A stretch of 64,000 nt of DNA from Pyrobaculum sp. 3827-6 (GCF_025641885.1 NZ_JAOTQN010000001.1:1200547-1264546); one strand, 5' to 3'. Numbered from the stretch's first letter, positions 852-48,007 are shown. The notes: generated by a model from the letters alone, not told the origin. Program-made: numbers and translations.

Positions 852-958
852 ATGTATCCTGTACTTTTCGTTTAATAAATTTTATTACACAACTTCAAGT
901 AATATATTGAATCAAACTTAAATATAATATTCTTATTACTGAATATCAAAATATATAA

Positions 959-3751: not shown

Positions 3752-3838
3752 GAGAAATCTTAACTAAATTCCTAAAAAGACTTGTTACTCGTAATTAAGA
3801 AATAGATCTGTAGAGAATAGTAGAAAGGTTGTGATAAC

Positions 3839-4333: not shown

Positions 4334-5520
4334 ATTAACCCTCTGAGTGTAAGCGGTATAGAGAGGTAGTACATCCTTATTAAATACCAGCCCCATCTAT
4401 TGCCTATAAACGGCCTTGCGTTTTTTACATATGTCCACCAGGGCATCCACGCCGCGCCTTTCTCAGCTGGGGAATACACAGCACCTAGATAGGGACAGAT
4501 AGTCTCGCCGTAAAAGATCCACTTATCGCCGTGGCCCTTAATTTCGCTAGCAATGTTGTGAGAAACCACAATTGCCTCATAGTGCGCCACCGAGCCGGCT
4601 CTGGTAACGCCAATGTCGGCGACATCGCCTACGATAAACACATCGTCGTAATGTTCTTTCCCCTTTCTGTACGTCAGATTATATCTATCGCCCGGTACTA
4701 AATTAAAGGGATTCCCTATGCCGGAGTCCCCTATGACTCGAGGCCCTCGATGTGGAGGTACTGTTATAAGTAAGTCGTATTTTATCTTTTCACCTTTAGT
4801 AGATATCAATACCTTGTTTTTAGCATCTACTCGCTCTGGCTCAAATTCGTAGATGTACTCCATGCCTCGGATTTTTAACATTTCTTCCAGTACTTTATTG
4901 ACCTCAGGCTGGGCGTGTAGGTGGTCTTGCGTAGTCGCCACAATTATCTTGTACCTCCCCTTCAGCATCCTTACATTGCTTAGATATGAATCTATCAAAA
5001 GAGGCGCCTTGCCGGAGGTTATTGGACATTTCATTGATACGTCAAGCATTGCTAAAAGCTGTACTATTGTGCCGCCTGTGAATTCTTGTAGTAGTTTTCT
5101 TACTTCCTTAGCGCCTTCGAAGGTATAGTAAGTATGATAATCGTCAAGGAGACCCGGCACCAGCGACGGCTCGTAGGAACACCCAAGAGCTATGACCAAA
5201 TAATCGTATGTATAGCTCTTCCCCTTTGCCGTAGTAATTGTCCGGTTTTTTAAATCTATTTTGACTACATTACCTTCATCTCCTAAAAAGGCTTTAATTT
5301 TAGGATCAAGTATTTTAGTTTTATCATATATAAGATCTTCCTCATCATATGCCCCAGCTATATACGGCACAAATGCTGCTTCAAAATAATAAGTTTTTGA
5401 TTTGTCGAAAATCATTAACTCAACCTCCCCTTTTACAATTTCTCTGCGCAAATCTCTGGCTAAGCTATTTGCAACTATCATTCCACCAGTCCCTGCCCCA
5501 AGGACAATAATTTTTTTCAT
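4330..5520 (-). CDS. FAD-dependent pyridine nucleotide-disulfide oxidoreductase (sulfide:quinone oxidoreductase / NDH-II-like)
   Basis: N-terminal Rossmann fold MKKIIVLGAGTGGMIVANSLA and a second dinucleotide motif (VATTQD..) in a 396-aa protein. It lies between dsrC and dsrAB. Confidence 0.8.
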   Translation of the reverse strand: MKKIIVLGAGTGGMIVANSLARDLRREIVKGEVELMIFDKSKTYYFEAAFVPYIAGAYDEEDLIYDKTKILDPKIKAFLGDEGNVVKIDLKNRTITTAKGKSYTYDYLVIALGCSYEPSLVPGLLDDYHTYYTFEGAKEVRKLLQEFTGGTIVQLLAMLDVSMKCPITSGKAPLLIDSYLSNVRMLKGRYKIIVATTQDHLHAQPEVNKVLEEMLKIRGMEYIYEFEPERVDAKNKVLISTKGEKIKYDLLITVPPHRGPRVIGDSGIGNPFNLVPGDRYNLTYRKGKEHYDDVFIVGDVADIGVTRAGSVAHYEAIVVSHNIASEIKGHGDKWIFYGETICPYLGAVYSPAEKGAAWMPWWTYVKNARPFIGNRWGWYLIRMYYLSIPLTLRGLI

Positions 5521-5542
5521 AGATTACAAAAAAAGCGCAGTT

Positions 5543-5878
5543 TTACACACAACCTGTTGGCTTAGGCGCTCCAGCTATTTTACAAGCGCCGTTTGCAGGG
5601 CCTGAGGGAAAGAGCTGGTATATTCTTTCAAGCGTGTTTCCTGTTTCTTTTAGCAACATCTTTATAGGCGGACATACGCCGTAGGTTTCCCAGTACTCTC
5701 TGAGATACTTAACTACTTTCCAATGATCATCTGTCATTTGTTGTATTCCCTCTAACTCACGCGCTAGCCATTCTGCTACTTTCTCATTCCACGCCTCTGG
5801 ATTTTGCATAAAACACTCCTCGTCTAATATTACAACAACATCATCAACCTTGTATTCCCCCGGGCATTTCACTGGCAT
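5543..5878 (-). CDS. dsrC: DsrC/TusE-family sulfur-relay protein
   Basis: 111 aa. The C-terminal arm ...NGACKIAGAPKPTGCV carries two conserved Cys, the penultimate CV being characteristic of DsrC. It lies 22 nt upstream of the flavoprotein gene. Confidence 0.85.
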   Translation of the reverse strand: MPVKCPGEYKVDDVVVILDEECFMQNPEAWNEKVAEWLARELEGIQQMTDDHWKVVKYLREYWETYGVCPPIKMLLKETGNTLERIYQLFPSGPANGACKIAGAPKPTGCV

Positions 5879-5964
5879 GCCACCTCTACTTAAGAGTAGT
5901 ATAAAAGGATCATTACTCTATTTTGAGTAATTATGTAACATGAAAGAAAACTACGATCCTTCCG

Positions 5965-6627
5965 CTATGTATGTTTACATTTACGAATAATTATCAACAA
6001 AGGTCTTACTCCTTGGAATTTATCTAATTCATCTACATTAACTATTTTAATACAACCTCCCCCTATTGTAATTGCATAACATATATATATTTCAACATTT
6101 TTCTCACAATTTTGTATTACAGCTGTCTTTACCATATCTAGTCTTTCGCCCATCATAAAAATTACGGCGGTGTCTGCTGCAACCTTGTTAAGGATTTCTG
6201 AGTTAAAATGAGGAAAAGAGAAGAGAGCTATATGTCTTAGCGATACGCCGTCTGTAAGCTCTATTTTGTACAACGCTGCAGCTGCCGTAAAGGCACTGAT
6301 GCCCGGCACTATTTGGCAGGACACTCCCCTATTTTCGGCTTTTTTACATATCTGTACTCCTCTGCCAAAGATAGAGGGATCTCCATTTTTCAGAATCACA
6401 ACATTCCGATCCCTAGCCTCTTCTATTAACTGTTCCACTATCGTATCATGTTCTTCTTTTCTGTGTCCAATTTTTACCCTCTTGGCGCTTGGAGCGTAAA
6501 GCGTAACGATTTCTTCAGGCACGAGATCGCCGTAGGCTACGACGTCTGCTTGACGCAGTAACTCCACTGCCTTAACCGTTAGCAGGCTCGGGTCGCCGGG
6601 GCCCGCCCCCACTACGTAGATCGGCAT
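5965..6627 (-). CDS. cobA: Uroporphyrinogen-III C-methyltransferase (SUMT, precorrin-2 synthesis for siroheme)
   Basis: Tetrapyrrole methylase motifs VVGAGPGDPSLLTVKAVELLRQADVV and GDPSIFGRG. The true start is probably the internal MPIYVVGAG (6627). The track ORF extends spuriously into dsrN. Confidence 0.85.
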   Translation of the reverse strand: MPIYVVGAGPGDPSLLTVKAVELLRQADVVAYGDLVPEEIVTLYAPSAKRVKIGHRKEEHDTIVEQLIEEARDRNVVILKNGDPSIFGRGVQICKKAENRGVSCQIVPGISAFTAAAALYKIELTDGVSLRHIALFSFPHFNSEILNKVAADTAVIFMMGERLDMVKTAVIQNCEKNVEIYICYAITIGGGCIKIVNVDELDKFQGVRPLLIIIRKCKHT

Positions 6628-25982: not shown

Positions 25983-26384
25983 TCAGCGGCGCGTCAAGAT
26001 CTGGGCCGCGGTTAGACAGCGCGCGGCGGCTTGGCAGAGCTTGCCGTCCTCCGTGACGAGGGGGGCGTCGAGGGACTCGGCCAGCCAGAGGTACACCGCG
26101 TCGTAGTAGGTAAGCCCTCTTCTGGTTGCTATGTCTAGCACCTCGTCTCTAAGCCCCACGCCGTGCACCGTCATGTGTGCGAGGAGTTTCGTGAAGAACT
26201 CTGCATAGGGAGCTACGTCGTCTATAACCTCTCTCCTCCTGAGCTTCCATATGTAGTTGCCTATTTCGTAGTGGGCGAGGTCCGCCGTGTGCTGTCTCTT
26301 TAAAGCCGCGGGGGCCCTTCTAGGCGCGATTTCCACGATTTTGATTATTGCCGAGGCGTCGAATACGTAGCTACCTCCCTTCAC
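25983..26384 (-). CDS. vapC: PIN-domain toxin VapC
   Basis: 133 aa with conserved acidic residues at PIN positions (FDASAII, TYYDAVYL, LVTED). Confidence 0.8.
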   Translation of the reverse strand: MKGGSYVFDASAIIKIVEIAPRRAPAALKRQHTADLAHYEIGNYIWKLRRREVIDDVAPYAEFFTKLLAHMTVHGVGLRDEVLDIATRRGLTYYDAVYLWLAESLDAPLVTEDGKLCQAAARCLTAAQILTRR

Positions 26385-26619
26385 GATCCTCCCTCACGCT
26401 CCGCGCCGCGTAGTCCTCTCCAAGCTCCGCGCTGGCTTTTCTAAGGCCCTCGGCCACCCTTACGGCAAGCTCCGACAGCTCTTCAAGCTCTCTTTTTTCA
26501 ACCTCTTCTTCCAGCGCCTTTCTGAGGACTTGGGATATGTTTATGCCGTATTTCCTCGCCTTCTCTACGACGTCGCGCCTCACTTTTGTAGACACGGTAA
26601 CCCAGCCCACGTCTACCAA
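26371..26619 (-). CDS. vapB: VapB-like antitoxin (RHH/CopG-type)
   Basis: 82 aa immediately upstream of vapC and overlapping it by 14 nt. Charged helical C-terminus. Confidence 0.6.
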   Translation of the reverse strand: MVDVGWVTVSTKVRRDVVEKARKYGINISQVLRKALEEEVEKRELEELSELAVRVAEGLRKASAELGEDYAARSVREDREGR

Positions 26620-27083
26620 AGATGTAGCTATTTAAAAGCCTACCGCGAGAGGAGTATTTATAGCTGGGGCGTAAACTCCGCGTGGTTGAGGTGTTGGTGT
26701 GGTGGGTAGTCTTCACGGTAGCGCTCTGGGTATTGCTGAGCCTGCTGGCTGGGAGGGCGGTGAACCCTCTGGGGGTTTTCCTAGGCGTCGTCTTGGCCCC
26801 AGTTGCCTTTCTAGTCGCCGCTGTCGTTGTCGGCTTCTTGGCGGTCGCTCTCGGCGTGTTTATCTGGCCGCTACTGGTGCTCGCCCCCTTCGCGGCGTTG
26901 CTCGCCGGGTTTCTAGCGGCGCTTTTCGTAGTGTCAGCCCTGGCCGGCGTAGACATGGTAAGGGCCTTCATCGCCCTGCTCCTAGCCACAGTCCTCCTCC
27001 TTGTGCTGAGCGGCTTGCTGTGGCACTCGCCGCTTCCGCCCAGGCTCCCTCTTCATTTTTAAACCCGGTGGTCGTGTCCGTGG

Positions 27084-27497
27084 GTGGCCGATAGAGAGAG
27101 AGCAGAGAGAGTTCTATGGGAGTTGAGGCGGACTTTGAGGCTTATGGAACGTATGTTGGAGAGGCCAGTTGACGAGTTTGTTAATGACGACGAGGCTGTC
27201 TACGCACTTAGGTATGCAGTGGTGGAGTTTGTCGAGGCGGCGGCTCAAGTGGGTCTGCTCCTCGCGCGTAGGGCGGGGGCCAGGCCCGGTAGCTACGGCG
27301 AGGTGTTCGACGTGCTGGGCGATCTCGGGGTAATCTCAAGGGATCTAGCCGTAGCCATGAGGAAGTTTGTCTCTCTCCGAAACCTGCTGGTCCACAGGTA
27401 TTGGGAGGTGGATGATAGGCGGATGTTTACAGAGCTCAAGGAGGGGGGCGCGGCGGCTTTGAAAAAATTTATCGAGGCTGTGGAGAGGCATGTTTAG
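27084..27497 (+). CDS. HEPN-domain protein (DUF86/HepT-like)
   Basis: Rx4HxY motif LRNLLVHRYWEV near the C-terminus. 137 aa. Confidence 0.75.
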   Translation: MADRERAERVLWELRRTLRLMERMLERPVDEFVNDDEAVYALRYAVVEFVEAAAQVGLLLARRAGARPGSYGEVFDVLGDLGVISRDLAVAMRKFVSLRNLLVHRYWEVDDRRMFTELKEGGAAALKKFIEAVERHV

Positions 27498-27882
27498 GTG
27501 GTTTGAGCTGAGCGGCGAGGAGAGGCGGCGCGTGGTTGAGACTTTGAGAAGGGAGCTGGAGGGCGATGCCGGTATTGCATTCGCCTTTGTCTTTGGTAGC
27601 TTTGTCGAGGGGGGGCCTTTTAGAGATGTGGACGTCGGCATCTACTTGAGGAGATCTCTCGACGTGCTTGAGGCTTATGCATACGCGGAGGAGCTCTCGG
27701 CGAGGCTCTCCAGGGCCGTTGCTCTACCCGTCGACGTCGTTGTGCTGAACTTCGCCCCCACCTGGCTGAGGAGGAGGGCGCTGAGGGGGCTGGAGCTGTT
27801 TGTAAAAGACGAGCTTCTCTGGGCCGCCGTGTGGGCCAGCGCCGTAGACGAAGAGGAGGGCCTCAGGCTCCATACGCAATAA
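27490..27882 (+). CDS. Minimal nucleotidyltransferase (MNT/MntA-like)
   Basis: GSxxxG...DxD motif FVFGSFVEGGPFRDVDVGIY. Overlaps the preceding HEPN gene by 8 nt. Confidence 0.75.
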   Translation: MFRWFELSGEERRRVVETLRRELEGDAGIAFAFVFGSFVEGGPFRDVDVGIYLRRSLDVLEAYAYAEELSARLSRAVALPVDVVVLNFAPTWLRRRALRGLELFVKDELLWAAVWASAVDEEEGLRLHTQ

Positions 27883-28003
27883 GACGACGCCTCCAACTCC
27901 GGCCTAGCCTCTCCGCCGCTCCCCCCTCCGGCGCTACTTAAACCGCGGCGCCAGGCAGAGTGCGCGCCGGCCCCCGCGGCGTGTTTAACGGCGCCGGTAT
28001 AGG

Positions 28004-28474
28004 CTAGTTGCCGGCTGTGTATGCACCTACAACCTTTTTCACATCTTCTACATATTGGCGGACTTTTTCCAGCTCTACCTTGAGCTCCTCGATGTCCACC
28101 ACGCCTTCGTAAAAAGCCTCTCCGTGCAGTATTTTATATCTAGCCATGTATCTATCTCTCAAGCCTAGATCCCTGACAACGGGGTGTCTCTTCTCCAGCT
28201 CTCTTAACATTACCCTCCTCTCGTAGTGGCTCATTGGCATCTTCCCCGCCAGCGCCAGTATCAACGCGTTTGTAGCCTGCACCACCGCGTTGCACGCCTT
28301 CTCGGCGGCGTCTCTCACCAAGATTCTATCCCCCTTAACCACAGCCTCGCCGAACTCCCCCTCCGCGGCCCGCGCGAAAGCCTCAGCGTCTTCAATCAGC
28401 TCCTTAACCCTGCCTGCAACGCCCAATTGCACGCCACATTCCCACTTCAGGTATATAATCTCACCGCTCCTCAA
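28004..28474 (-). CDS. Helical protein, PaREP1-related or HEPN-like
   Basis: 156 aa with DAAEKACNAVVQATNALILALAG resembling the PaREP1 core, and a C-terminal RYKILHGE (Rx4H). Confidence 0.35.
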   Translation of the reverse strand: MRSGEIIYLKWECGVQLGVAGRVKELIEDAEAFARAAEGEFGEAVVKGDRILVRDAAEKACNAVVQATNALILALAGKMPMSHYERRVMLRELEKRHPVVRDLGLRDRYMARYKILHGEAFYEGVVDIEELKVELEKVRQYVEDVKKVVGAYTAGN

Positions 28475-28632
28475 CCTTTTCTAAATCCCATAGCCTCAGA
28501 CCTGCTCGACCGTTTACCGCCAGCCTGGTTTCTCAGCCGCAACTTTATTACCCCCACGTGGCGGTGATGTTTTAAGCATCTCTGAAATGTGTATTGAGTC
28601 TTATCTCGCCGCGAGTATATCGGTAATGCGGT

Positions 28633-29046
28633 GTGGATATGAGGGAGGAGGCTCTTGTCTGGTTTAGAGAGACCGTGAAGGGCTGCCTAACGGCGAAGAT
28701 GTTGCTTGAGGCTGGTGTTTTCCACTCACGTGCATTTTTCTCCCACCAGGCGGCGGAAAAGGCTTTGAAGTCTCTTTTCTTCGTGCTGGCTAGGAAAGAG
28801 CCGCCTAAGCGGCACAACCTCCTAGAGCTGTACAGAGAGCTAAGGCGATACGGAGTGGAGCTCTCCCCCCAGCTAGTGGAGGGCCTCGCCGTGGTGACGA
28901 AGTACTACGCCACGTCCCGCTACCCAGACGCCGCGGGAGGCCCTCCCTCTGAGCTCTTCACGAAGAGAGAGGCTGAATACGCCCTTGAGGTTGCGAGAGA
29001 GTTGATAAGGCTGGCGTCCCTGACTTATGGAGAGGAGGGTTGCTGA
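28633..29046 (+). CDS. HEPN-domain protein (classical HEPN)
   Basis: SHQAAEKALKSLFFVL...PKRHNLLELY matches the HEPN PF05168-type core. Confidence 0.75.
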   Translation: MDMREEALVWFRETVKGCLTAKMLLEAGVFHSRAFFSHQAAEKALKSLFFVLARKEPPKRHNLLELYRELRRYGVELSPQLVEGLAVVTKYYATSRYPDAAGGPPSELFTKREAEYALEVARELIRLASLTYGEEGC

Positions 29047-29347
29047 CGTCGTTCAGAAATTTGTGGAGGAGCTGAGGAGGGAGGGCATCGAGGTTGTGGC
29101 AGTCTACCTCTTCGGCTCCTGGGCGCGGGGGGACTGGCTGGTCGACAGCGACGTGGACTTGGTAATTGTGTCACCCCACTTCAGAGGCGTGCCCTGGCTC
29201 AAGAGGCTGGAGATGCTGGCTAGGATAGAGGCGCGGCTCGACCTTCCGTTGAGTCTAGACGTGTTGCCCTACACGCCGGAGGAGTTGGAAAAGGTCAAAT
29301 CCGCCGTCTTAAGAGACGCCTCCCGTTACTGGAGGCGTGTAGTATAG
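29027..29347 (+). CDS. Minimal nucleotidyltransferase (MNT)
   Basis: VYLFGSWARGDWLVDSDVDLVIV is the GSxxRG...DxD NTase motif. Overlaps the preceding HEPN gene. Confidence 0.8.
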   Translation: MERRVADVVQKFVEELRREGIEVVAVYLFGSWARGDWLVDSDVDLVIVSPHFRGVPWLKRLEMLARIEARLDLPLSLDVLPYTPEELEKVKSAVLRDASRYWRRVV

Positions 29348-31457: not shown

Positions 31458-32525
31458 TTGTTTGTTGTGTTTCATATGGTGTTTGCAAAAAACCCGATAG
31501 ATCGCCTCCGTGAACGCGGTTTTGATGTCGGCGACGTGGGGGATGCCCTACGTCTTGCTATTATAGCTGAGCTAGACGCCATCAGCCTGTATCTACAGCT
31601 CGCTAGATATGCAGAAGACGAGAGGGTGCGCAGAGTTTTTCAAGACGTGGCAAACGAGGAGAGGACGCACTTCGGCGAATTCCTCGCCCTCCTCAAGGAG
31701 TACGACCCCCAGCTAGCCGGGGAGCTGGAGGCGGGGGCGAAGGAGGTGCGGGAGCTGGCTGGCGTGGGGGCCGGCGAGGGTAGAGATCCGCCTAGCAACG
31801 GCAGATGGATCAGCCAGCTGGCTAAACAGGTGGCCGACGCCGCCGCCGCGGCGAGGCGGTTTAGGAAAGTGCTCGCTACCTACAACGTGGGACGCGGCGC
31901 CGAGGCTGTGGCCTTTGAAGTGCTGACGAGGGAGGGCAAAGCCGAGAGGAGGATCACGCCATTGAGGGAGCTGAAAATTAGGTTCACCGTGTCGCAACAA
32001 CAAGTCGACCTCGCGCTGTCCAGGGGGGCACCTGTGGAATCTGTCGAGGCTGATAAGGCCGCCGTCAAGCTGGCATATGAAGAAGACGCCGCGGTGCTCG
32101 GCGATCTTCTTAAAAGCGGAGATGTTGTAGAGATTTCCAGCTGGGACAGGCCGGGGTCTGCTGTGCAGGAGGTGGCTAAGGCAGTGGCTGAGTTGTACAG
32201 GAGATACGTCCCCGAGCCCTATGTCCTGTTCGTAAGCCCCGGGAGGTTCGCAAAGCTGGTAGCTGTAGAGGAAAAGACGGGGGTTATGGAGCTCACACGG
32301 GTAAAGACCTTGGTGAGGGACGTGGTGGCGTTGCCACAGCTCAGCGACGACGACGCCCTGCTCATGTCTGTACACCCCTCCGTGGCCGACATAGCTGTGG
32401 GTGTCGACGCCGAGGTCATATACCTAGGCCCGGAGGAGGGGGGACACGGCTTTCTACTACGCGAGACCTTCGCCGTGAGGGTGAAGAACCCCGCCGGCGT
32501 CTTGGCGCTACGGGTAGGTGGGTAG
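31458..32525 (+). CDS. Family-1 encapsulin shell protein with N-terminally fused ferritin-like (Flp) cargo domain
   Basis: The N-terminal ~100 aa carry a ferritin-like/rubrerythrin di-iron signature (DALRLAIIAELDAISLYLQLARYAEDERVRRVFQDVANEERTHFGEFLALL). The C-terminus matches encapsulin (Linocin M18) ends (GVMELTRVKTLVRDVVALP...GHGFLLRETFAVRVKNPAGVLALRV). This is the same architecture as the Pyrococcus furiosus virus-like-particle protein. Confidence 0.7.
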   Translation: MFVVFHMVFAKNPIDRLRERGFDVGDVGDALRLAIIAELDAISLYLQLARYAEDERVRRVFQDVANEERTHFGEFLALLKEYDPQLAGELEAGAKEVRELAGVGAGEGRDPPSNGRWISQLAKQVADAAAAARRFRKVLATYNVGRGAEAVAFEVLTREGKAERRITPLRELKIRFTVSQQQVDLALSRGAPVESVEADKAAVKLAYEEDAAVLGDLLKSGDVVEISSWDRPGSAVQEVAKAVAELYRRYVPEPYVLFVSPGRFAKLVAVEEKTGVMELTRVKTLVRDVVALPQLSDDDALLMSVHPSVADIAVGVDAEVIYLGPEEGGHGFLLRETFAVRVKNPAGVLALRVGG

Positions 32526-34518: not shown

Positions 34519-35766
34519 CTATTTCACCACTTTTTTAACTTTAAGGGTGAGGCCCTCCACCTCCACCACAACCACCTCCGCCCCCCTCTCCACGGCCTCG
34601 TCAGACACAGCCGTCCACTCCTCCCCGGCCACGTACACAACCCCCGGCTGCCCCGGCCCTATCTCCGTCTTGGCCACCCCCCTCGCCCCCATCAGCTGGC
34701 TACGGTAGTCCAGAGGACGCCTCTTCAAAGCCTGCCTCACCTTGTACCCCACGTACGCCACAGCCACCGCCCCAACCGCGGCTAGGCCCGCCGCGGCGTA
34801 TGACGCCCCCTGGGACTGGTAGTAGGGCTGGCCGCTCCCCGCGAAGTACAGCGAAAGGGCAAAGAGGGCCAGGCCCGAGGCGGCCAGGGCCCCGTGGCCG
34901 GCCACCATCTCCCCCACGATAAGCGCCGCGCCGGCCAGGGCGAGGAGAAGAGAGAGGAGGTCGGCCCCCAGCTGGCCCACGAGGTAGAGGGCCAGGGCGA
35001 GGAGAACGCCGCCCACCACGCCCACCCCCTGGAACCCCGCGGCCACCAGCTCGTAGCCGATGAGCACGACACCCAGCAGGATCATAAGCGAGATGAGGGC
35101 CGGGTCCGACAGGGCGTTGAGCAACCTCGCCAGCGGGTCCCGCCTGTACACAGCCGCGAAGCTCCAGCCCTCGGGAGGCGGCGGCTCGGCGATGCCGAGC
35201 TTCACGGCCTCCGCGCCGGTGAGCACCCTGTTCTGCCTCACAAATGACTCCGCGACGTCGACGCGGGAGTCGTTCCACTTGGCGGAGGCCAGGGACCTCA
35301 TCCTAGCCGCGGCGTAGTTCACCACCTTCGGGTCCGGGGGCCTGGGCTCCGCCGCGCCTATCTCAGCCGTCGGCGCCATGTAGATGCGCTTAGCCGCCAT
35401 GGCTATGAAGGCGCCCGCCGACACCGCCTTGGCCCCCTCCGGCACGTAGGCGTACACCGGCACCCCGGCGTTTAGAAACATCTCCACGATCTGGTCCATG
35501 GGGCCGAGGAACCCCCCGTAGGTGTCCAACACCACCACGAGAGGCACCCCGAGCCTCTCCGCCTCAGCCAGCGCGGACCTAGCCAGCGACGCCGCCGTGC
35601 CGTCCACAGTCCCGTCGAGGTAGAGGGCCACCGCCGCCCCCCCGGCCGCCGCGTGCGCCGCGAGGAGGAGAAGCAACCCCAGCCACCTGCCCACGCCCCC
35701 ATCAACAAACAGTTTTAAAAATTGAGGCGCCCAGCACCCCGTGGCCAAGGAGGCGAAGAAGGCCAT
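34519..35766 (-). CDS. NfeD-like membrane-bound serine protease (stomatin operon partner)
   Basis: ClpP-class protease domain (LVVVLDTYGGFLGPMDQIV), central TM helices and a C-terminal OB-fold segment (GVAKTEIGPGQPGVVYVAGEEWTAV). Immediately upstream of the stomatin gene. Confidence 0.75.
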   Translation of the reverse strand: MAFFASLATGCWAPQFLKLFVDGGVGRWLGLLLLLAAHAAAGGAAVALYLDGTVDGTAASLARSALAEAERLGVPLVVVLDTYGGFLGPMDQIVEMFLNAGVPVYAYVPEGAKAVSAGAFIAMAAKRIYMAPTAEIGAAEPRPPDPKVVNYAAARMRSLASAKWNDSRVDVAESFVRQNRVLTGAEAVKLGIAEPPPPEGWSFAAVYRRDPLARLLNALSDPALISLMILLGVVLIGYELVAAGFQGVGVVGGVLLALALYLVGQLGADLLSLLLALAGAALIVGEMVAGHGALAASGLALFALSLYFAGSGQPYYQSQGASYAAAGLAAVGAVAVAYVGYKVRQALKRRPLDYRSQLMGARGVAKTEIGPGQPGVVYVAGEEWTAVSDEAVERGAEVVVVEVEGLTLKVKKVVK

Positions 35767-38283
35767 CAGGGAGAGGATATGGAGGCTAATGGAGGAGAGA
35801 GGCGTCGCCGCCTTCCCCCGCCCCGTCTACGGCAGAATCCCCAACTTCAAAGGCGCTGAGAAGGCCTGCCAAAACCTAGCCCACCTAGACATATTCGCCA
35901 AGGCCGCCGTTGTTAAGATAAACCCCGACGCCCCCCAGAGGCCCTGCCGCGAGGCGGCGATGCACGCCGGCAAGAAGGTGGTGATGCCCACACCCCGCAT
36001 CCGCGAGGGCCTCCTACTCCTAGACCCAGCCCAAATCCCCAAAGCCGCGTACAGAGAGGCATCCACCATCGCCGGCGCCTTTAAATGGGGCAAGCCCGTC
36101 AAGCCCTGGGACCTCCCACCGGTAGACCTCGTGGTGATAGGCTCGGTAGCCGTAAACCCCAGAGACGGGAGGAGGCTCGGAACCTTCGCATATAATCTCG
36201 CTGGGCTCACAACTGGACCAATAGCCTAAGGCCTCCTCTTTTTCCAAGCTTCACAGATTCCCAATTACATGACTCTGACAAAGCGCTCTGTTGGTAAGGA
36301 TTTTGGTTTGTATTTCTTCGCCTAAAGATCTAAGTAGGTAATAATCGCCGATGGAAAGATTTCCGTCTTCTAAAACGACTATTCATAAATTTAAAAATAT
36401 TACATTGTATATGGGCAATTTAGGTATAGATGGCCTATGGCATAAGGACGCGATCAATTGTGCTGAAGAGTGGAGAAGTTACCTTAGCGAATCCTGCGAT
36501 GATCTCATTACAAAGCTAAGGCAAGCCCTAATGCAGGTTCCTAGAGTTATCAGCCGGGGGAAAAGAACCTTGTTTGATTATGGCGATGTAAAGATATCTA
36601 CAGATGGAAAGGTCACTATACTAAAAGTAAAAGGTCAGAATGAGTTAGCAACAAAGCTTAAGAAATTAAAAGGTACTGCAAATATCTCCTCGGATTTCAA
36701 ATATTCATACCTGCTTGGATGGCTTGCTTCAGATGCCTATATTGAGGATATTTATGTCAAAGTCGGCACTACGCAATTTTGGCAATTATCGAAATTAACT
36801 AAATTATTTAATCTAATAAATATTAGAATAAAAGGCTTTAGCCTCACTAAAAAGGGACTGAAACCAATTGTAGAGATATACTGGCGCCTTGACACAAGCT
36901 GGTGGAATGTCACAGTACGGGAAGCGGTATCAGCTCTAAATTCAAATCCACTAATACAAAGGGCTATTAGTGCTATAAACAGCAGGTTAGATGTAAGCAA
37001 CTTTCTCTCTGATTGGAATAGAAGAGCTAGAAGATATGTTTCAGCCTCACTACTTAACAAAAGCGAAAGAGATTTCGGCGCCTTCATGTTGGGATTAATA
37101 GAAGGCGACGGCCACGTAAATGAAAAATACAGTTACGTCTCTATTACCATTGGCGATGAAAAATTGGCAATAATACTAGTAGCGCTTATGTGGAAATTCG
37201 GGTTTACCCCAAGAATATATAGACGTAGAAGATACTACTTGCTTAATATTTATAAACGACAACTTCGCAAACTCGTGACAATCATACCCCCAGAATTGCT
37301 TACAGATTCACCCAAAGCTGAAAATTAGTAAAAATCGGAAGCTTTAAATGGAGCTTCTCTGTGAGAAAAACCAGCACTTCAATAAACGTGATTACATCGC
37401 CTAAAAACCAATTCCAAACTTATCTAACTGTTGAAAAGCTAAAAGAAATAGGCCTAACAGAAAAAATACACTTTACATTTGCAGTGCCATCCCCCCACAA
37501 GAGCGGACGTGTTACTATAAAACACGAAGGATTAAGATACCTAGCATATCTAGCATACCGAAAAAATAACAAAAAAGCACAGAACTTATTAACATATTTA
37601 AAAGAACAAGCACATAAAACTTCTGCTTACCACGCCATAAACAAAATAATTGAAGAGGGACAGCGGTATTCATCAAGAGACCTACCCGAGGACATTACAG
37701 CCGAAGCGCTGATAGATGGGAATAAGTTGCGCATCAATATAAAGCCTCATAACCTCACCATCACGTTCAGAATAGAGAGAAAAAACACCATCGTTGGAGA
37801 GGCGCCAGCCAGAAAGGCAGTGGAAGAGAGGAAACACATCTTAGAAAAGCTACTAGGTAGAAACGTACCAATTAAGCAACATTCCTTTAAGCTAAGCGGC
37901 GGCGATTTCCGGAGGCTACTTGAATACAAACAACTCTTCGACACAATGTATAAGTGGTACATAAACACCCCCTTTTTTCCACACATGAACACGGCTACGC
38001 CGAGCTCGAGTGGGGCATCCTCTCAGCCCTGGGGAAGGTAGGCGAGGACACGCCGGTAGCCACCACGGTACACGACGTGCAACTGGTTGACGACGAGATC
38101 CCTCGCGAGCCCTTCGACCTGCCGGTAGACGTCGTGGCCACCCCAACCCGCGTCATACACACCAAGAGAGTAGACAAGAAGCCCCACGGAATCCTCTGGC
38201 AATACATCACCAAAGAAACGCTCGCGGAAATCCCACTCCTCGCCGAGCTAAAAGAAAAACTCGCAACAAGCCGCACGTCATGA
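35741..38283 (+). CDS. 5-formyltetrahydrofolate cyclo-ligase (MTHFS) gene interrupted by a ~1.8-kb insertion. Exon-like parts are 35741..~36184 and ~37984..38283, in different frames.
   Basis: The N-terminal ORF ends ...DLVVIGSVAVNPRDGRRLG then degenerates. The C-terminal ORF resumes ...HEHGYAELEWGILSALGKVGEDTPVATTVHDVQLVDDEIPREPFDLPVDVVATPTRVIHT, which reads as the GxGxYD and PxxxxDxxVDxxxTP motifs of MTHFS. The parts are separated by 1.8 kb and the frames are 35741 mod 3 = 2 versus 37954 mod 3 = 1. Confidence 0.65.
36185..37983 (+). mobile_element. AT-rich insertion (candidate mobile intron or inserted element) carrying a LAGLIDADG endonuclease ORF
   Basis: Sharp compositional drop from ~60% GC to AT-rich exactly between the two halves of the MTHFS gene. 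It contains two ORFs in the host-gene orientation. Confidence 0.6.
36351..37328 (+). CDS. LAGLIDADG-family homing endonuclease (two-motif, single chain)
   Basis: Two LAGLIDADG-like motifs about 125 aa apart: YSYLLGWLASDAYIE and GAFMLGLIEGDGHVNE. 325 aa. AT-rich codon usage unlike the host. Confidence 0.7.
   Translation: MERFPSSKTTIHKFKNITLYMGNLGIDGLWHKDAINCAEEWRSYLSESCDDLITKLRQALMQVPRVISRGKRTLFDYGDVKISTDGKVTILKVKGQNELATKLKKLKGTANISSDFKYSYLLGWLASDAYIEDIYVKVGTTQFWQLSKLTKLFNLINIRIKGFSLTKKGLKPIVEIYWRLDTSWWNVTVREAVSALNSNPLIQRAISAINSRLDVSNFLSDWNRRARRYVSASLLNKSERDFGAFMLGLIEGDGHVNEKYSYVSITIGDEKLAIILVALMWKFGFTPRIYRRRRYYLLNIYKRQLRKLVTIIPPELLTDSPKAEN
37361..38041 (+). CDS. Hypothetical protein encoded inside the insertion
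   Basis: 226-aa AT-rich ORF that reads through into MTHFS exon 2 out of frame. No recognised family. Confidence 0.35.
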   Translation: MRKTSTSINVITSPKNQFQTYLTVEKLKEIGLTEKIHFTFAVPSPHKSGRVTIKHEGLRYLAYLAYRKNNKKAQNLLTYLKEQAHKTSAYHAINKIIEEGQRYSSRDLPEDITAEALIDGNKLRINIKPHNLTITFRIERKNTIVGEAPARKAVEERKHILEKLLGRNVPIKQHSFKLSGGDFRRLLEYKQLFDTMYKWYINTPFFPHMNTATPSSSGASSQPWGR

Positions 38284-38889: not shown

Positions 38890-39570
38890 ATGTATATAGA
38901 CTTGACGATGGAGCTGGGCCCCGACACGCCTGTCTTCCTCGGCTACCCCAAGCCGGCTTTCATCCAGTGGTCCAAGATAGACCTCCACGGCTACTACTCC
39001 CGCGTGATGTACACGCCAGAGCACTCAGCCACACACGTCGACTCCCCCGCCCACTTCGTGCCGGGGGCGAGGACAGTGGACCAGATACCCCCCGAGAAGT
39101 TCATCGGCGCCTTCGTCGCACTCGACTTCTCCGACCTGCCCCCCAGAGGCCAGATAACGCTGAGGGCATTCGAGGCCAGACTCCCCCGCGGCGCCGACCT
39201 CGGCCCCGGCGCCGTGGTCCTCCTCCGGACGGGGTACGACGCCTACGCCGGGACAGACCGCTGGCTGGAGCACCCCGACATATCGCCAGAGCTGGCTGAG
39301 CACCTAGCCAAGCTAGGCATAAACGCCGTGGGGACAGACGCCCCCTCCCCAGACCACGCCCCCTTCGAAATACACAAAATACTCCTCGCGAGGGAGGTTT
39401 TGATATACGAAAACCTCACAAACCTCGCCGCCGTCGTCGGCAAGAGAGGCCGCTTCTACGGCCTACCCCTAGTGCTATCCCCACACCCCATCTTCATTTT
39501 TCCTGACTCGACGTCGGATGTTTTTCCTGATTCAGGAAGATTGTCTGATTTTAACTCAGGTAAAATGTAG
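38890..39570 (+). CDS. Cyclase-family protein (arylformamidase/kynurenine formamidase-like); C-terminus fused into IS hairpin sequence
   Basis: PF04199-like motifs (HSATHVDSPAHF, LLRTGYD, GTDAPSPD). The last ~28 codons (PHPIFIFPDSTSDVFPDSGRLSDFNSGKM) are encoded by the IS terminal hairpin repeat. Confidence 0.7.
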   Translation: MYIDLTMELGPDTPVFLGYPKPAFIQWSKIDLHGYYSRVMYTPEHSATHVDSPAHFVPGARTVDQIPPEKFIGAFVALDFSDLPPRGQITLRAFEARLPRGADLGPGAVVLLRTGYDAYAGTDRWLEHPDISPELAEHLAKLGINAVGTDAPSPDHAPFEIHKILLAREVLIYENLTNLAAVVGKRGRFYGLPLVLSPHPIFIFPDSTSDVFPDSGRLSDFNSGKM

Positions 39571-40716
39571 ATGGGAGGGTTGAAAGTCGTGTTGGGAAAA
39601 AAGGGGGATTATTTCCCGGTACCTCTTCTGTGCCCAATGTATCGGCACATCGTCACGGTTGGCCTCAAAGCCGCACTGACATTTCACCCTTCTGTTCGGA
39701 AGCTCCTCCATCTTTGCTCCGCATCTGGGGCAAATGGTGGAGTACAGCCTCAGCTCTGCGTAGGGCACCCCGTACCACTCGGCAAGCTCCCTCAGCCTCT
39801 TCACAAGCCTCCCCACATTGAGATACTTCTTGACGTTTGACTTTACCCTATCGCCTTTCTTCAGCCCCCGTATAGATTCGTCTATGGGCTCGTCCACTAC
39901 GACGGCGGCTTTGTACTGCATAGCGAGCTTCACGATCTTCTTTGCCGCCTCTATTGTCCATTGCCTCCACAGCCGCCAGAGGCGGCTCTTGGCCTCTGTT
40001 GCCTTTTTGCAGTAGGCGCCGCCTTTTGTGGTACATAGGGAGTCCAGCCTGGCGATCTCCCTCTCCAAGCGGCCGATGCGGCCGAGATCAGGCCTCAAGA
40101 TGCCCTTCTGCAACACCTTATCTTCCTCTATGGTGGCTATCACTATGCCGTTGTGGAGGGCGTTGACGTCGACTACGAGAAGCCTCTTGGGCTGGTATGG
40201 CGTAATTTCTCTGTGGAACACAAGCACCACGTTGAAAGTGGCGATGTTGCTGTCCCGCCGCCTGCCTACCCACGCCAGGGCGAATTTCAGCTGGGCGCTC
40301 TCCTTCACCCTTTCTTCAATCCACTTGATCTCAGACTTCCTCAGCTTAATCACGATGGTGTTGCCTCTCTCGCCGCTCCACTTCCTGATTCTAACCTCCC
40401 TCTCTGACAGATCTACAAGGACGCCGCGGCTGTTGTCGCCCGCGTTTTTATCAAGCCTCAGCTCTGCGTTGAAAGGAAGCGGCACCCTCCACACGCCATT
40501 CTTAAGCCCATTCGCGGGCAAGAGCTTCAACGCATGTTTCAACTCAGTGGCGAAGTACTTCAGTGGATTCTGCTGTGGGAGCGGTGCTTTGAATCCGCTC
40601 TTGTACCACTCCGTTGCCCACTCCTGGAACTTCTGTTGCACCTCTAGGAATTTGGTCAGCTGATGCGGCGGTATTTCTTCCACTCTCCTCTTTATTACCA
40701 GCGTTCGGTAGCCCAT
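39556..40716 (-). CDS. tnpB: TnpB (IS605 OrfB) RNA-guided nuclease-like transposon protein
   Basis: 386 aa with a RuvC-like split nuclease domain and a C-terminal zinc finger CPRCG...CQCG, which is typical TnpB architecture. Confidence 0.85.
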   Translation of the reverse strand: MGYRTLVIKRRVEEIPPHQLTKFLEVQQKFQEWATEWYKSGFKAPLPQQNPLKYFATELKHALKLLPANGLKNGVWRVPLPFNAELRLDKNAGDNSRGVLVDLSEREVRIRKWSGERGNTIVIKLRKSEIKWIEERVKESAQLKFALAWVGRRRDSNIATFNVVLVFHREITPYQPKRLLVVDVNALHNGIVIATIEEDKVLQKGILRPDLGRIGRLEREIARLDSLCTTKGGAYCKKATEAKSRLWRLWRQWTIEAAKKIVKLAMQYKAAVVVDEPIDESIRGLKKGDRVKSNVKKYLNVGRLVKRLRELAEWYGVPYAELRLYSTICPRCGAKMEELPNRRVKCQCGFEANRDDVPIHWAQKRYREIIPLFSQHDFQPSHLHFT

Positions 40717-44431: not shown

Positions 44432-45207
44432 TCCTCGCCACATACCTCCCCATCCACCGCGTCATCGAGCTAAAAATTTTCAAAGAAAATATAGAAATTG
44501 CAAATCCAGATAAAATAGTTATTTGTATAGATTATTACTTTGATAAAAATCAAGATACACTCTATCAACAGTTTATAAGGGAACTGGGAGAGGCGGAAAC
44601 CATAAAAGGCAACTGGAGGAATAGATCGTCTTGCTTGCTCAGACTCGTCCGCCACATTGCGGAGAACGGAGGCGACGGACTGATAGTGGACTCCGACGTC
44701 GTGCTCCCACAACAATGGAAAGAAATCGACAAGAAGCTCAACCTACCCTTTTACCACCTAGCCCATGAGGCTTGGCGACACAAGAGAGTGCGCAGGGAGA
44801 TAGTAAATGGCATAGAGGTATACTACTGGAAGGTAAAAGATCCCCTTGCAAAGTACATGCAGGTATTTACCGGTCCAAAACTAGGAATTAGATACAAAGG
44901 GCTGACGCTAAATCTCAAAGCAGTAGATGAAGTAACGGCATTCTTTGACGAGGTCGACACGTACTACTCAAGCATTATAGCCGACGAGGTAGCTCTCGGC
45001 ATAGTCTACGACCTCAGCGGAGTGAAAGAAGTCCCCTTCATAGTGGGTGCACGTCACTATGTACATAAGTCATATCCAGCAGTTAAATCAGATGAAAAAC
45101 TACGTAAATGCATATACGCAAAGGCATTAGTCAAGCTTTATAGAAGATTTAATTACAAACTACCGCAACTCAGATACCTGGTATCACAGCTACTAAACTG
45201 CCATTAG
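44428..45207 (+). CDS. Hypothetical protein (AT-rich cassette gene 1), ATGA-coupled to the GT4 gene
   Basis: The start MILATYLPIHRV overlaps the GT4 stop. The ~260-aa protein is AT-rich (low GC from 44460). No confident family. The track ORF 44260..45207 is over-extended upstream. Confidence 0.45.
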   Translation: MILATYLPIHRVIELKIFKENIEIANPDKIVICIDYYFDKNQDTLYQQFIRELGEAETIKGNWRNRSSCLLRLVRHIAENGGDGLIVDSDVVLPQQWKEIDKKLNLPFYHLAHEAWRHKRVRREIVNGIEVYYWKVKDPLAKYMQVFTGPKLGIRYKGLTLNLKAVDEVTAFFDEVDTYYSSIIADEVALGIVYDLSGVKEVPFIVGARHYVHKSYPAVKSDEKLRKCIYAKALVKLYRRFNYKLPQLRYLVSQLLNCH

Positions 45208-45238
45208 AAATGAAAGCAAAACCGCCCCTCATATACAT

Positions 45239-46450
45239 ATGAATGTCCCTATTGTTTTGAGTATACTATACCACTCATTAGACGACAGTAGAGGAATAGC
45301 AGAGGAGCGAACACCGCCCTGGAACTACAGAGCCGCTTGGGCCATCACGAAGTATCTCAAAATTCCCACCATAGCCATCAGGCCCACCGAACTGGAACAA
45401 CCGGTTGTAAAAATCCTAAACAACGTAGTAGTAGTCCTCCTCCCATACCACCACCTAAATATACCACTTCCGAAAATGGTAAAATCTACAATAGCCGCCC
45501 TCCAGCCCTTAGAAAGAAATATAAAATATATCTATGACTTAGTAAAAAACATTAAAAAAGACAGACAACAAGTAGTATACTATATACATGAATATAAAAA
45601 TATTTATAACATTCCCTTCTATCTAGATAGAGACAGTCCCTTTATACTTCAACAACATTCCCGAAAACCCTTCGAACCCAAGGTAGCCGATATTATAAAG
45701 ATCAGACTTCTAAGAGGACTGGAAAAAACAGCCTTCTATGCCCTATCTATCTACGAGAAAGAGTCGCTCCAAAGTCTGGGATTCCAGCACGTGTACCTCC
45801 GCCCCATGGGAGTAGCCGTCGACCAAATACCCCTTGTTGAAAAACATAGAAAATATGAGATCCGCGAAAAGCTAGGCCTCCCCACCGACCGAATCATAAT
45901 CACGACCTATGTCTCCACGCCGATATACAAACACGGCGAGCTATTCGACGTCAAGGGCTCCCATCTACTTCCCCACATACTAAGATACCTCTCAACCACG
46001 CACAAAAACACACTTCTCGTAGTCTTCAACCTAAGAGGCGACTTCGCGAACTACCTTAGAAAGATGGGAGCTACGGTATACCCCTACGTGTCCCAAGCCG
46101 AGTTCTTTCAGCACCTCGCCGCCAGCGATCTCTATATACTGCCAGCCACCGACCTCCTAAAATACTCAGGCATAAACATCGCGGTCGTTGAGGCTATGGC
46201 CATGGGCAAGCCGGTCTTGAGCCCCACACTAATCCACCTACCAGATTTAAGACTCCTACCCACAGTAGGCATAGCACCCCCATACATAAACAACATAAAT
46301 AAACTAAATATATTTCTAAAAAAATTAACTGAAATAATTGAAAATATTAATAAATATAAACCAGCAGAAATAAGAGAAGTAGCCCAAAAGTTCTATTCAT
46401 GGGAAACCTTCGCCAACGACTTCAAAGACACACTGCACAAAATCGCCTAA
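45239..46450 (+). CDS. Glycosyltransferase family 4, AT-rich
   Basis: The C-terminal GINIAVVEAMAMGKPVLSP and overall GT-B layout. Markedly lower GC than its neighbours. Confidence 0.7.
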   Translation: MNVPIVLSILYHSLDDSRGIAEERTPPWNYRAAWAITKYLKIPTIAIRPTELEQPVVKILNNVVVVLLPYHHLNIPLPKMVKSTIAALQPLERNIKYIYDLVKNIKKDRQQVVYYIHEYKNIYNIPFYLDRDSPFILQQHSRKPFEPKVADIIKIRLLRGLEKTAFYALSIYEKESLQSLGFQHVYLRPMGVAVDQIPLVEKHRKYEIREKLGLPTDRIIITTYVSTPIYKHGELFDVKGSHLLPHILRYLSTTHKNTLLVVFNLRGDFANYLRKMGATVYPYVSQAEFFQHLAASDLYILPATDLLKYSGINIAVVEAMAMGKPVLSPTLIHLPDLRLLPTVGIAPPYINNINKLNIFLKKLTEIIENINKYKPAEIREVAQKFYSWETFANDFKDTLHKIA

Positions 46451-46611
46451 AAAGGCGTCGCCATCTTTCTAACATGCCTGCCCACCACGCCACTAACCCG
46501 TCGGCCAATCTTTTCTGACTCTCCCAGAGGCTGACCAGCGTAGATTACGATGTTTAAAAGAGGCAACGAGAATAACATTTTCAATTAATCTATAGTGGCA
46601 TCCTATAAGCG

Positions 46612-46883
46612 AGGCCACGGATCGGGCCAGGGCGTTCCTGCACGCCACGGTAAATGAGCACTGGGGCATCGCCGTCGCGGAGGCCATGGCCCGCGGGCTA
46701 ACACCCGTAGTGCACAAGTCGGGAGGGCGTGGATCGACCTGGTGGAGATTGGGAGGTACGGCATGGGTATCTTACAGCCACGAGGCGCTCGCGGCGCTCG
46801 CCAGGCTACTTCTACAGAGACACGACGTAGAGATACACAAAAAGATTAAATCACTAACCTTAGGGGAATCGAGAAGGGCCTAG
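46612..46883 (+). pseudogene. Duplicated 3' fragment of the GT4 gene (copy of ~44148-44345), frameshifted
   Basis: About 200 nt at 46612-46810 are near-identical to the 3' part of the 43226..44431 gene (RAFLHATVNEHWGIAVAEAMARGLTPVVHKSGG...). A 1-nt indel breaks the frame. Confidence 0.6.
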
Positions 46884-48007
46884 CCGCTACTATCTAACCC
46901 CTCTGTGCGATCTTCCATAATCAAGTCGCTATGAGAAACAAACCTCTTTCTCATAAAAGTCGACCTAACGGGAAAGAATACATGGCTGAGCGTCACTATA
47001 GATGGTAGCCTTACCCGCGGCACATTACTTAGATCGATAATGCCGTATTTCGCCTTCAATTTTTGCCCTACCCTCCACCCGTCAACTGTAGCTTTATACA
47101 TTGTACAGTACTTTTCAATACCTAGTTTACAAAGAAGATATGAACTATACTTCACTCTTAAATAATAAATATATGTGAGATGGTAGAAAGGTCTCTTGAC
47201 GATAGAATGGACTATGAACTTCGCCCTTATGGGGTAGTACTTAATCGTGCCGCTTTGGCGTGTGGTTAGCGAAACATAATGCACCCCAGCCACGACAGGC
47301 ACATAGTAACTACCATAGCCGGAGTTCCACAACTTAAGACTCAGAAGTAAGTCATCGGCGTAGAGAAATGTCTCATCAATAAAAGGCATTCCATCAAACC
47401 CCAAACGCCTTATCACGTCGACCTTGGCCACGTAGTAGGCGCCGTCCGCATAGCTCACGGGGTGCGGCTTCCCCGCCGAAGGACAGTCGGAATATTTAGC
47501 ACCATGGCATATTCCAATAGACGACAAGATATCATCAGTAGCCCAACCAGCTGAGTATATAGTCGATCCATCAGGGTAATAGAGCAACCCGCTCGCAGCA
47601 CCCACATCTTCGTTGCCGATCAGAAACTCTACAAGCTGTCTCAGAGAACTAGGCTCTACCACTAGGTCGTTATTTAGAAAAGCGACGATGCGGCTGTCTT
47701 TATCGATCGCTTTCCAGCCCAAGTTCATCCCCCCGGCATACCCCCTGTTGACATCACTCCTAACAATCCTAACACTAATTCCACTTGGCCTCCGCTTATT
47801 CACATACTGCTCAATGGCTTCAGAACTTCCATCTGTAGAAGCGTTATCAACAATAATGATTTCGTAGTTATCATAATCTATACTATATAAAGATTCTAAA
47901 GATTTCAACACAACATCAAGTATTTTCTGACTATTGTAGTTAAGCCAGATTATAGAGACTTTATACACGGCGTCTGCAAACACTATATTTTTAAATATAC
48001 ACGGCAC
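46880..48007 (-). CDS. Glycosyltransferase family 2
   Basis: GT-A motifs (YEIIIVDNASTDGS, DxD-containing ADDLLLS). 375 aa. AT-rich. Confidence 0.8.
   Translation of the reverse strand: MPCIFKNIVFADAVYKVSIIWLNYNSQKILDVVLKSLESLYSIDYDNYEIIIVDNASTDGSSEAIEQYVNKRRPSGISVRIVRSDVNRGYAGGMNLGWKAIDKDSRIVAFLNNDLVVEPSSLRQLVEFLIGNEDVGAASGLLYYPDGSTIYSAGWATDDILSSIGICHGAKYSDCPSAGKPHPVSYADGAYYVAKVDVIRRLGFDGMPFIDETFLYADDLLLSLKLWNSGYGSYYVPVVAGVHYVSLTTRQSGTIKYYPIRAKFIVHSIVKRPFYHLTYIYYLRVKYSSYLLCKLGIEKYCTMYKATVDGWRVGQKLKAKYGIIDLSNVPRVRLPSIVTLSHVFFPVRSTFMRKRFVSHSDLIMEDRTEGLDSSG

Follow-up and report, generated by a model that had tools for sequence, protein, structure and literature searches.

The 64,000-nucleotide (nt) stretch of Pyrobaculum sp. 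3827-6 DNA analysed here (NZ_JAOTQN010000001.1:1200547-1264546; referred to as the window) contains, at positions 35741 to 38283, a gene of the 5-formyltetrahydrofolate cyclo-ligase family that is split by an inserted element of 1807 nt. We consider it probable that this element is a free-standing PaREP2 gene of the homing-endonuclease type which disrupts its host gene, and that its distribution is best accounted for by homing without an intron. An earlier note on the same DNA had seen in it a candidate mobile intron of an archaeal mRNA, to be excised at a motif of bulge-helix-bulge (BHB) type, and had offered insertional inactivation by a mobile element as the fallback; it is the fallback that the evidence supports, given that a BHB is found at no in-frame junction, that an insert-free allele exists and that the carriers have lost the Lys-Ala codons of the host gene. 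On this account the insert does not represent a new class of archaeal mRNA intron. What gains a concrete identity is the PaREP2 repeat family, which is abundant in Pyrobaculum and annotated only as 'repeat protein' or 'putative transposon', and whose members are, as far as their sequences tell, two-motif LAGLIDADG proteins to which a C-terminal domain is added. In the present case a compact member of the family is seen to be present in some strains of a species and absent from others, at one highly conserved site.

In the scenario that we favor, the endonuclease would cut the empty site, whereupon the element and about 100 nt of flank would be copied in as the break is repaired from an allele that bears the insert. 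The first insertion would have been imprecise, with the loss of 5 nt, and the host gene would be inactivated in carriers. The copy in the window, frameshifted since, would have entered the decay phase that is expected in the life cycle of a homing endonuclease.

The insert is polymorphic at a conserved site of its host gene

Matches to the Pfam family PF01812 (5-FTHF_cyc-lig) on either side of the insert bear out the earlier recognition of a split cyclo-ligase-family gene: the open reading frame (ORF) 35741-36229 covers profile positions 1-136 (70 bits) and the ORF 37954-38283 covers positions 140-186. The N-terminal part of the host gene proper (exon 1 for convenience; 35741-36181, + strand) comprises codons 1-147 and ends in ...DGRRLG, and the C-terminal part (exon 2; 37990-38283, + strand) runs from HGYAELEW... 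to the stop codon; by tblastn, the orthologue on contig L001 is 77% identical to the former and 74% identical to the latter. In ten uninterrupted Thermoproteales orthologues, taken from genome contigs, the sequence spanning the gap reads ...GRRLGKSHGYAELEW..., and all of the 120 homologues listed from a collection of 5.8 billion proteins carry R[LIV]GK[SGA][HEG]GY, in which the Lys is invariant. The insertion point lies inside this R-L-G-K-x-H-G-Y motif, encoded by the most conserved motif-coding stretch of the host gene. No intact protein of more than 81% identity was found in the same collection. Carriers are left with a truncated N-fragment of 162 codons and an orphan C-fragment; the last 15 codons of the former (TFAYNLAGLTTGPIA) and its TAA are encoded by the insert (36182-36229, + strand), and this read-through tail is not conserved as a protein (it reads ...AGPRSGPIA in P. 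ferrireducens). Present genome annotation treats the fragments of the split gene and the insert as separate genes, as in CP003098, where the locus is divided into a 162-aa 'cyclo-ligase', a 525-aa LAGLIDADG protein and a 75-aa ORF.

Amid surroundings of 60-64% GC, the insert has a GC content of 0.388, compared with 0.635 for exon 1 and 0.593 for exon 2, which shows that the insert derives from a lower-GC source and agrees with its earlier description as compositionally foreign. Alignment to the empty site and to the orthologues places the element at 36183-37989 (+ strand), where its 1807 nt replace the 5 nt AAGCC, a net gain of 1802 nt, with borders that are uncertain by a few nt. The window and P. 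ferrireducens share a net length of 1802 nt; three metagenomic copies (L019, L020 and L022) have 1803 nt.

Altogether, the same insert occupies the same site in five further assemblies. L027 is the complete genome of the isolate P. ferrireducens 1860 (CP003098.1), L020 is a JGI metagenome contig and L022 an ENA metagenome contig; the metagenomes concerned include JGI 3300019821 and ERZ1669248. L021, a Logan assembly, is identical to the window and was probably built from the same reads. L019 (JBMFJP010000272.1) is a 2.4-kb NCBI contig of a metagenome-assembled genome (MAG; GCA_049973535.1) binned as 'Infirmifilum sp.', and it starts at 36104. Its identity to the Pyrobaculum window amounts to 97% with the flanking host genes counted in, and it was probably mis-binned owing to the low GC of the insert.

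The empty site is seen in contig L030, from a MAG (GCA_049974165.1) of the same study series as L019. This contig carries Band_7, NfeD and exon 1 and differs from the carriers by 1.0-1.8% over 2.15 kb, which is within the range found among the carriers themselves. After ...AGG AGG CTC it continues with GGG AAA GCC CAC (G-K-A-H) and then ends, whereas the carriers read GGA A|CC...(element)...CATGAA|CAC, without the Lys codon and with GGA instead of GGG for Gly147 (junction versions: CTCGGGAAAGCCCACGGCTAC vs CTCGGAACCTTCGC and CACATGAACACGGC). The intron-less alleles that the earlier note had suggested seeking at related loci are thus represented by the uninterrupted ...DGRRLG-KAH of L030. It follows that insert-plus and insert-minus alleles coexist in one species-level clade, and that the insert is polymorphic for presence and absence in the clade of P. 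ferrireducens and Pyrobaculum sp. 3827-6. Another contig, L031, stops at about 36144 and misses the junction by about 40 nt; this end and the start of L019 near the junction are what would be expected at an assembly-graph bubble. On the empty site, the candidate target of the endonuclease is GACGGGAGGAGGCTCGGGAAAGCCCACGGCTACGCCGAGCTC.

The host gene itself, folate/thiamin-related and belonging to an archaeon of hot springs, falls within the broad Pfam family only. Against the MTHFS equivalog model TIGR02727, whose cutoff is 84.9 bits, the rejoined protein and the P. neutrophilum orthologue each score 20 bits, and the gene abuts thiDN in four relatives; such a thiDN-type neighbour (Phos_pyr_kin plus ThiN) adjoins the uninterrupted orthologues in L028, L002, L004 and L011. 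No thiDN was found anywhere in the 64-kb window or at the P. ferrireducens locus. The missed cutoff and the thiDN neighbour point to a paralogue of uncertain function, probably of the COG0212 type, and the host gene is plausibly dispensable.

Intron, intein and split-enzyme readings

An intron in the mRNA, spliced out by the tRNA-splicing endonuclease through a very relaxed BHB or removed by some unknown route, is in our estimation very unlikely, even though several features could perceivably be cited in its favor. Removal of 1802 nt (in window coordinates) restores both the reading frame and the length of the orthologues, the exon ends are unusually complementary to each other, the exons are open in all carriers with an omega of 0.12-0.21, and crenarchaeal endonucleases accept relaxed motifs (PMC2724299). 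If the conserved RRLG and HGY are both to be kept, however, exon 1 must end within 36181-36187 and exon 2 must start within 37984-37990, and at no junction that keeps RRLG...HGY in frame did we find either a strict 3-4-3 BHB (two 3-nt bulges and a 4-bp helix, the inter-bulge distance setting the register) or a relaxed one; the central 4-bp helix forms at no in-frame register, with at most two of its four pairs in any of them. A more permissive scan, allowing bulges of 2-5 nt and any in-frame stop-free product, returned one weak candidate against a mean of 8 in 200 dinucleotide shuffles.

Several individual candidates were rejected. A BHB at 36200/37999 (1799 nt) would turn KSHGYA into TFAYNLA and is broken by the P. 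ferrireducens substitutions at 36205 and 36207; another, at 36197/37952, is frameshifted by a C-run deletion in P. ferrireducens; and an hBH half-motif at 36177-89 / 37902-12 joins exon 1 to the endonuclease frame and not to exon 2. The pairing of GCUCGG in exon 1 with CCGAGC in exon 2 that had been noticed earlier is real, but it lies at 36175-36180 / 38000-38005 and not at 38001-38006 on the exon 2 side; in a BHB built on this helix the central CUUC/UACG forms two of four pairs and the junction is out of frame. Overall, the end of exon 1 (36141-36180) and the start of exon 2 (38000-38046) are complementary with z = -2.5, a value reached in 3 of 300 shuffles, and the same regions of the ten uninterrupted orthologues give z of -0.6 to +1.3. 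This complementarity yields no splice-competent structure and may be due to chance.

Other classes of intron are no better represented. There was no Rfam match to a group I or group II intron, either in the gathering search or with E up to 10, and under the group I rule (exon-terminal U, intron-terminal G) the only matching register yields a TAA codon; tRNA genes and Rfam families are absent from the window as a whole. A structured RNA with a GC content of 39% is also implausible at temperatures of 90 °C or more; for rRNA introns of the Thermoproteales the mean is 57% GC (PMC4496867). The products that could possibly be made in frame are G(H/N/T)EHGY, GT(L/F)HGY or a shortened GKHGY, so that each either lacks the invariant Lys or is one residue short. 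Since AAGCC has been lost in the carriers, no excision, whether from RNA or from DNA, can regenerate the wild-type motif. The outcome that the earlier note had named as speaking against an intron, joined exons unable to restore an intact reading frame, is in substance what is seen: the frame is restorable, but the invariant Lys motif is not. The coexisting insert-free allele accounts for the selection that acts on the exons (see below).

An intervening sequence is known from a crenarchaeal protein-coding gene, in the form of the BHB intron of the cbf5 pre-mRNA (PMC2738675). The cbf5 introns are short and carry no ORF, and their BHB restores the exact coding sequence (PMC2738675); the insert shares none of these three traits. 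Were the interrupted gene still expressed whole, with the insert removed from the mRNA in spite of having no recognisable BHB, group I or group II structure, the insert would be the first intervening sequence in a protein-coding transcript of an archaeon to carry a homing endonuclease, and we consider this scarcely probable.

The view that the insert is a degenerate intein, once in frame and equipped with a LAGLIDADG domain, retains next to no probability and is, at the level of sequence, already refuted. It could draw on the insert length of 1803 nt, a multiple of three, in three copies, on the common occurrence of LAGLIDADG_3 in inteins, and on the presence of intein endonuclease domains among the structural matches of the encoded protein. 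Against this, each of the three frames is closed by a stop codon no more than 50 nt from the 5' junction, the endonuclease ORF is in a different frame from the exons, no Hint or Intein_splicing domain was matched, and the alignment of the first 115 residues and of the C-terminal domain is to PaREP2 proteins and not to splicing blocks. The earlier note had dismissed an intein on the ground that the two gene halves are in different reading frames; the dismissal holds because of the stops and the missing Hint domain, but its argument rests on a strain-specific indel in an A-run, and in three other copies the halves are in phase.

Finally, the N-fragment (35741-36229) and a C-fragment starting at GTG 37954 might be translated separately and assemble into an active enzyme. 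There is a precedent in a phage ribonucleotide reductase, which is split by a homing-endonuclease gene and works as pieces. Both halves of the host gene are open in every carrier, and in the window an in-frame GTG lies 10 codons upstream of HGY. What makes this possibility highly improbable is the C5T6 run at the 3' border of the insert (37968-37978, + strand), which has C4 in P. ferrireducens. The missing C shifts GTG 37954 out of the exon 2 frame, a TAA closes that frame, and no start codon precedes HGY; with its only upstream start out of frame in this strain, a separately translated C-fragment is unlikely. In addition, the break falls inside the most conserved loop of the family, and the invariant Lys is gone.

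A PaREP2-type LAGLIDADG protein

As had been observed earlier, the insert encodes a two-motif LAGLIDADG ORF in the orientation of the host gene. Its N-terminal 325 codons (36351-37328, + strand) match LAGLIDADG_3 at 3e-9 (36-37 bits vs a Pfam cutoff of 22.5). Motif 1, LLGWLASDA, lies at 36711-36737 (residues 121-129) and motif 2, MLGLIEGDG, at 37086-37112 (residues 246-254), and the acidic residue is kept in both. In the window the gene is truncated by a 1-nt deletion in a homopolymer (A4 at 37321-37324, + strand), which splits an ORF of 563 codons; A4 is seen identically in L021 only, and all other copies have A5. L019, L020 and L022 each contain the single 563-codon ORF with the two halves fused, so that the 'second ORF' of the earlier note is the C-terminal, PaRep2b-like half of the same protein (37322-38041, + strand, with a GTG at 37361), as seen in the fused 563-aa protein that was used as our reference (P0001).

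In the window this ORF extends 54 nt into exon 2, to the TAG at 38039-41. The C-terminus of the family, ...KNWLEETGR, aligns with ...YKWYINT at the 3' border of the insert, from which it follows that the element has no stop codon of its own and that its ORF enters exon 2. P. ferrireducens retains A5, lacks one C in the run at 37968-37972, and its ORF ends at a TGA (37986-88). Upstream of the ATG lies a conserved AT-rich leader (36261-36350, + strand), with 1 difference per 90 nt between P. ferrireducens and the window, which we regard as the gene's own putative promoter. The leader is preceded by a hypervariable non-coding segment at the 5' end of the insert (36187-36260, + strand; GC 0.50 and thus host-like), in which 18 of 73 positions differ between the same two strains as opposed to about 1.4% in the rest of the insert.

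An AF2 model of moderate confidence (mean pLDDT 65.5) contains two alpha-beta-beta-alpha-beta-beta-alpha units, at residues 117-198 and 239-311, and its top Foldseek matches are I-DmoI, I-Tsp061I, intein endonuclease domains and WhiA (probability 1.0, target TM about 0.5). With both motifs and this modelled pseudo-dimeric fold, the encoded protein would be classed among the monomeric two-motif LAGLIDADG proteins.

A full HMMER scan of 1.84 billion representative proteins returned 24 relatives, all of them distant (phmmer E 6e-10 to 1e-3); several carry PaRep2b, LAGLIDADG_3 or both, only PaRep2b- or LAGLIDADG_3-bearing proteins having been found. When P0001 was aligned with PaREP2 proteins by hhalign, the match had a probability of 99.5% (E 8e-23, 424 columns, residues 116-545) and was collinear from the first LAGLIDADG motif through to the C-terminus; the gathering cutoff of PF07775 (PaRep2b) was missed (16 bits vs 20.4, residues 335-377 only). 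Judged by these alignments, the endonuclease is a compact member of the PaREP2 family of Pyrobaculum. PaREP2b has been labelled a putative transposon (PMC3558965), and no paper tying PaREP2 to LAGLIDADG endonucleases was found in the literature searched.

The insert protein shares with the rest of the family both LAGLIDADG-like motifs and the frequent frameshifting of its copies. It differs in being 563 aa long as opposed to 600-1400, in having neither the long N-terminal region nor several internal segments, and in being encoded by AT-rich DNA, whereas other members are GC-rich. It also lies inside a gene and is single-copy in the window, while the three PaREP2 relatives inspected for gene context (n=3) sit between genes and outside introns, two of the three being frameshifted. 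Other PaREP2-family genes, in L023 (5001-8415) and L024 (146-2526), are split into two adjacent or overlapping ORFs, which fits the frameshift-ridden state of the family.

The kinship to rRNA-intron endonucleases that the earlier note had entertained was not recovered: no sequence relationship of the endonuclease to LAGLIDADG enzymes of rRNA introns is detectable, and its affiliation is with PaREP2 instead. What it has in common with the crenarchaeal rRNA-intron enzymes I-DmoI, I-PorI and I-Tsp061I is the monomeric two-motif LAGLIDADG fold and a host lineage within the Thermoproteales. Unlike them, it is not surrounded by a BHB intron, has an extra C-terminal domain of 230 aa, and has a protein-coding gene as its predicted target.

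Parallels are also offered by phages. The seg and mob genes of T4-like phages are free-standing homing endonuclease genes, and in Aeromonas phage Aeh1 one such gene, mobE, reportedly splits nrdA. Like these, the insert lies in or beside a conserved host gene without an intron or intein, is absent in close relatives, and has flanks that show co-conversion-like homogenisation. In contrast to them, it resides in an archaeal chromosome, its protein is of the LAGLIDADG and not of the HNH or GIY-YIG type, the host gene is seemingly destroyed instead of functioning as two pieces, and 5 nt have been lost.

Divergence, selection and the probable spread of the insert

Within the cluster of strains to which the window belongs, the flanks are six times as diverged as the insert. 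Between the window and L022, 66 of 3830 flank positions (1.7%) and 5 of 1802 insert positions (0.28%) differ (p = 6e-7). Compared with L019, there are 9 differences over 36104-38087 and about 9% divergence from 38088 onward (p = 1e-12). At 0.031-0.037, the synonymous divergence of the endonuclease ORF is roughly half the value of 0.069 found for the host genes (Poisson p 0.002-0.009). The low divergence of the insert within the window's cluster suggests a recent spread with short co-conversion tracts; homing with co-conversion would explain the far lower divergence of the insert relative to its surroundings. The endonuclease ORF is also under purifying selection, with an omega of 0.23.

There are, on the other hand, several observations that weigh against this interpretation. 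First, between P. ferrireducens and the window the flank differs by 2.2% and the insert by 1.5%, which is not a significant difference (p = 0.12), and old vertical inheritance is as compatible with this pattern as spread is; part of the low synonymous divergence could, moreover, stem from the AT-rich third codon positions of the insert. Second, the exons have an omega of 0.12-0.21 (about 5 non-synonymous and 10.5 synonymous changes in exon 1 over six strains) and are free of frameshifts in every carrier, the exon 2 frame being open in all strains. Taken alone, this would suggest that the interrupted gene still matters. The signal can be explained if carriers recombine with functional insert-free alleles, and with such an allele coexisting, purifying selection is weakened as proof of function in the interrupted state. 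Third, the empty allele is seen only 13 nt past the junction, at the end of one metagenomic contig. Fourth, both the activity of the endonuclease and its target on the empty site are predictions made from sequence, and the target is not cleanly preserved as it is in classical homing; the replacement of 5 nt fits an illegitimate first insertion.

An illegitimate insertion could also be all that ever happened. In such a case, a one-off event in the ancestor of the clade, be it capture of a PaREP2 gene by non-homologous repair or an unknown transposition route, would have left an element that is now inert and is passed on only by descent and ordinary homologous recombination, the endonuclease playing no part. 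We regard this as unlikely, yet more than one observation is compatible with it: 5 nt of target sequence gave way to the element, which has a 4-nt direct repeat, GAAC, on either side (36180-83 and 37987-90); divergence between P. ferrireducens and the window is about 1.4% in the insert and in exon 1 alike, with substitutions reaching up to the borders; two of the five distinct insert copies carry indels; and there is the naming of PaREP2b as a putative transposon (PMC3558965). An inert insertion would nevertheless leave unaccounted for the omega of 0.23 with both catalytic motifs kept, as well as the sixfold lower divergence of the insert in the window's cluster with its sharp breakpoint. Nor does the insert resemble a conventional transposon, as no terminal inverted repeats of the insert were found, and neither a transposase nor a second copy of the insert occurs within the 64-kb window; relatives of the insert were likewise missing from IMG/VR viral contigs and from phage and plasmid collections.

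Two further proposals about the borders were rejected. The GAAC repeats are real, but they do not behave as a target-site duplication, in that the frame is lost once the element is removed together with one copy. Nor does the insert begin with a diverged version of exon 2 at its 5' end, since a local alignment scores 17.5 and shuffles score 18.1 on average, as expected by chance.

If the element does home as a free-standing endonuclease gene, the culturable isolate P. ferrireducens 1860 would provide a test system for such homing in the chromosome of a hyperthermophilic archaeon, and there would be a thermostable endonuclease to characterise, with its candidate target already defined.

Downstream of the split gene the carriers have a variable region that contains PaREP1, a cyclase and a TnpB-like gene. 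The PaREP1-family gene (PF05942; 38371-38832) follows directly and has a pS of 0.35 between P. ferrireducens and the window, compared with 0.06-0.08 for its neighbours; the high divergence toward it begins inside exon 2, at about 38088. Further on, an ORF of 386 aa of the TnpB type (IS200/IS605) with a Cas12f1-like TNB domain occupies 39556-40716 on the - strand. Homology with P. ferrireducens stops near 39300, which marks the region of this ORF as a strain-specific mobile-element region.

Elsewhere in the window, the stretches 1-6000 and 45001-48000 have a low GC content as well (0.40-0.50 vs a window mean of 0.56) and could represent further foreign islands. Toxin-antitoxin-type pairs (PIN/CcdA, HepT/nucleotidyltransferase and HEPN/nucleotidyltransferase) lie at 25983-29347, according to precomputed Pfam calls for the identical contig L021. 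The ORF 31458-32525 joins a Rubrerythrin domain to a Linocin_M18 (encapsulin) domain and is conserved in P. ferrireducens.

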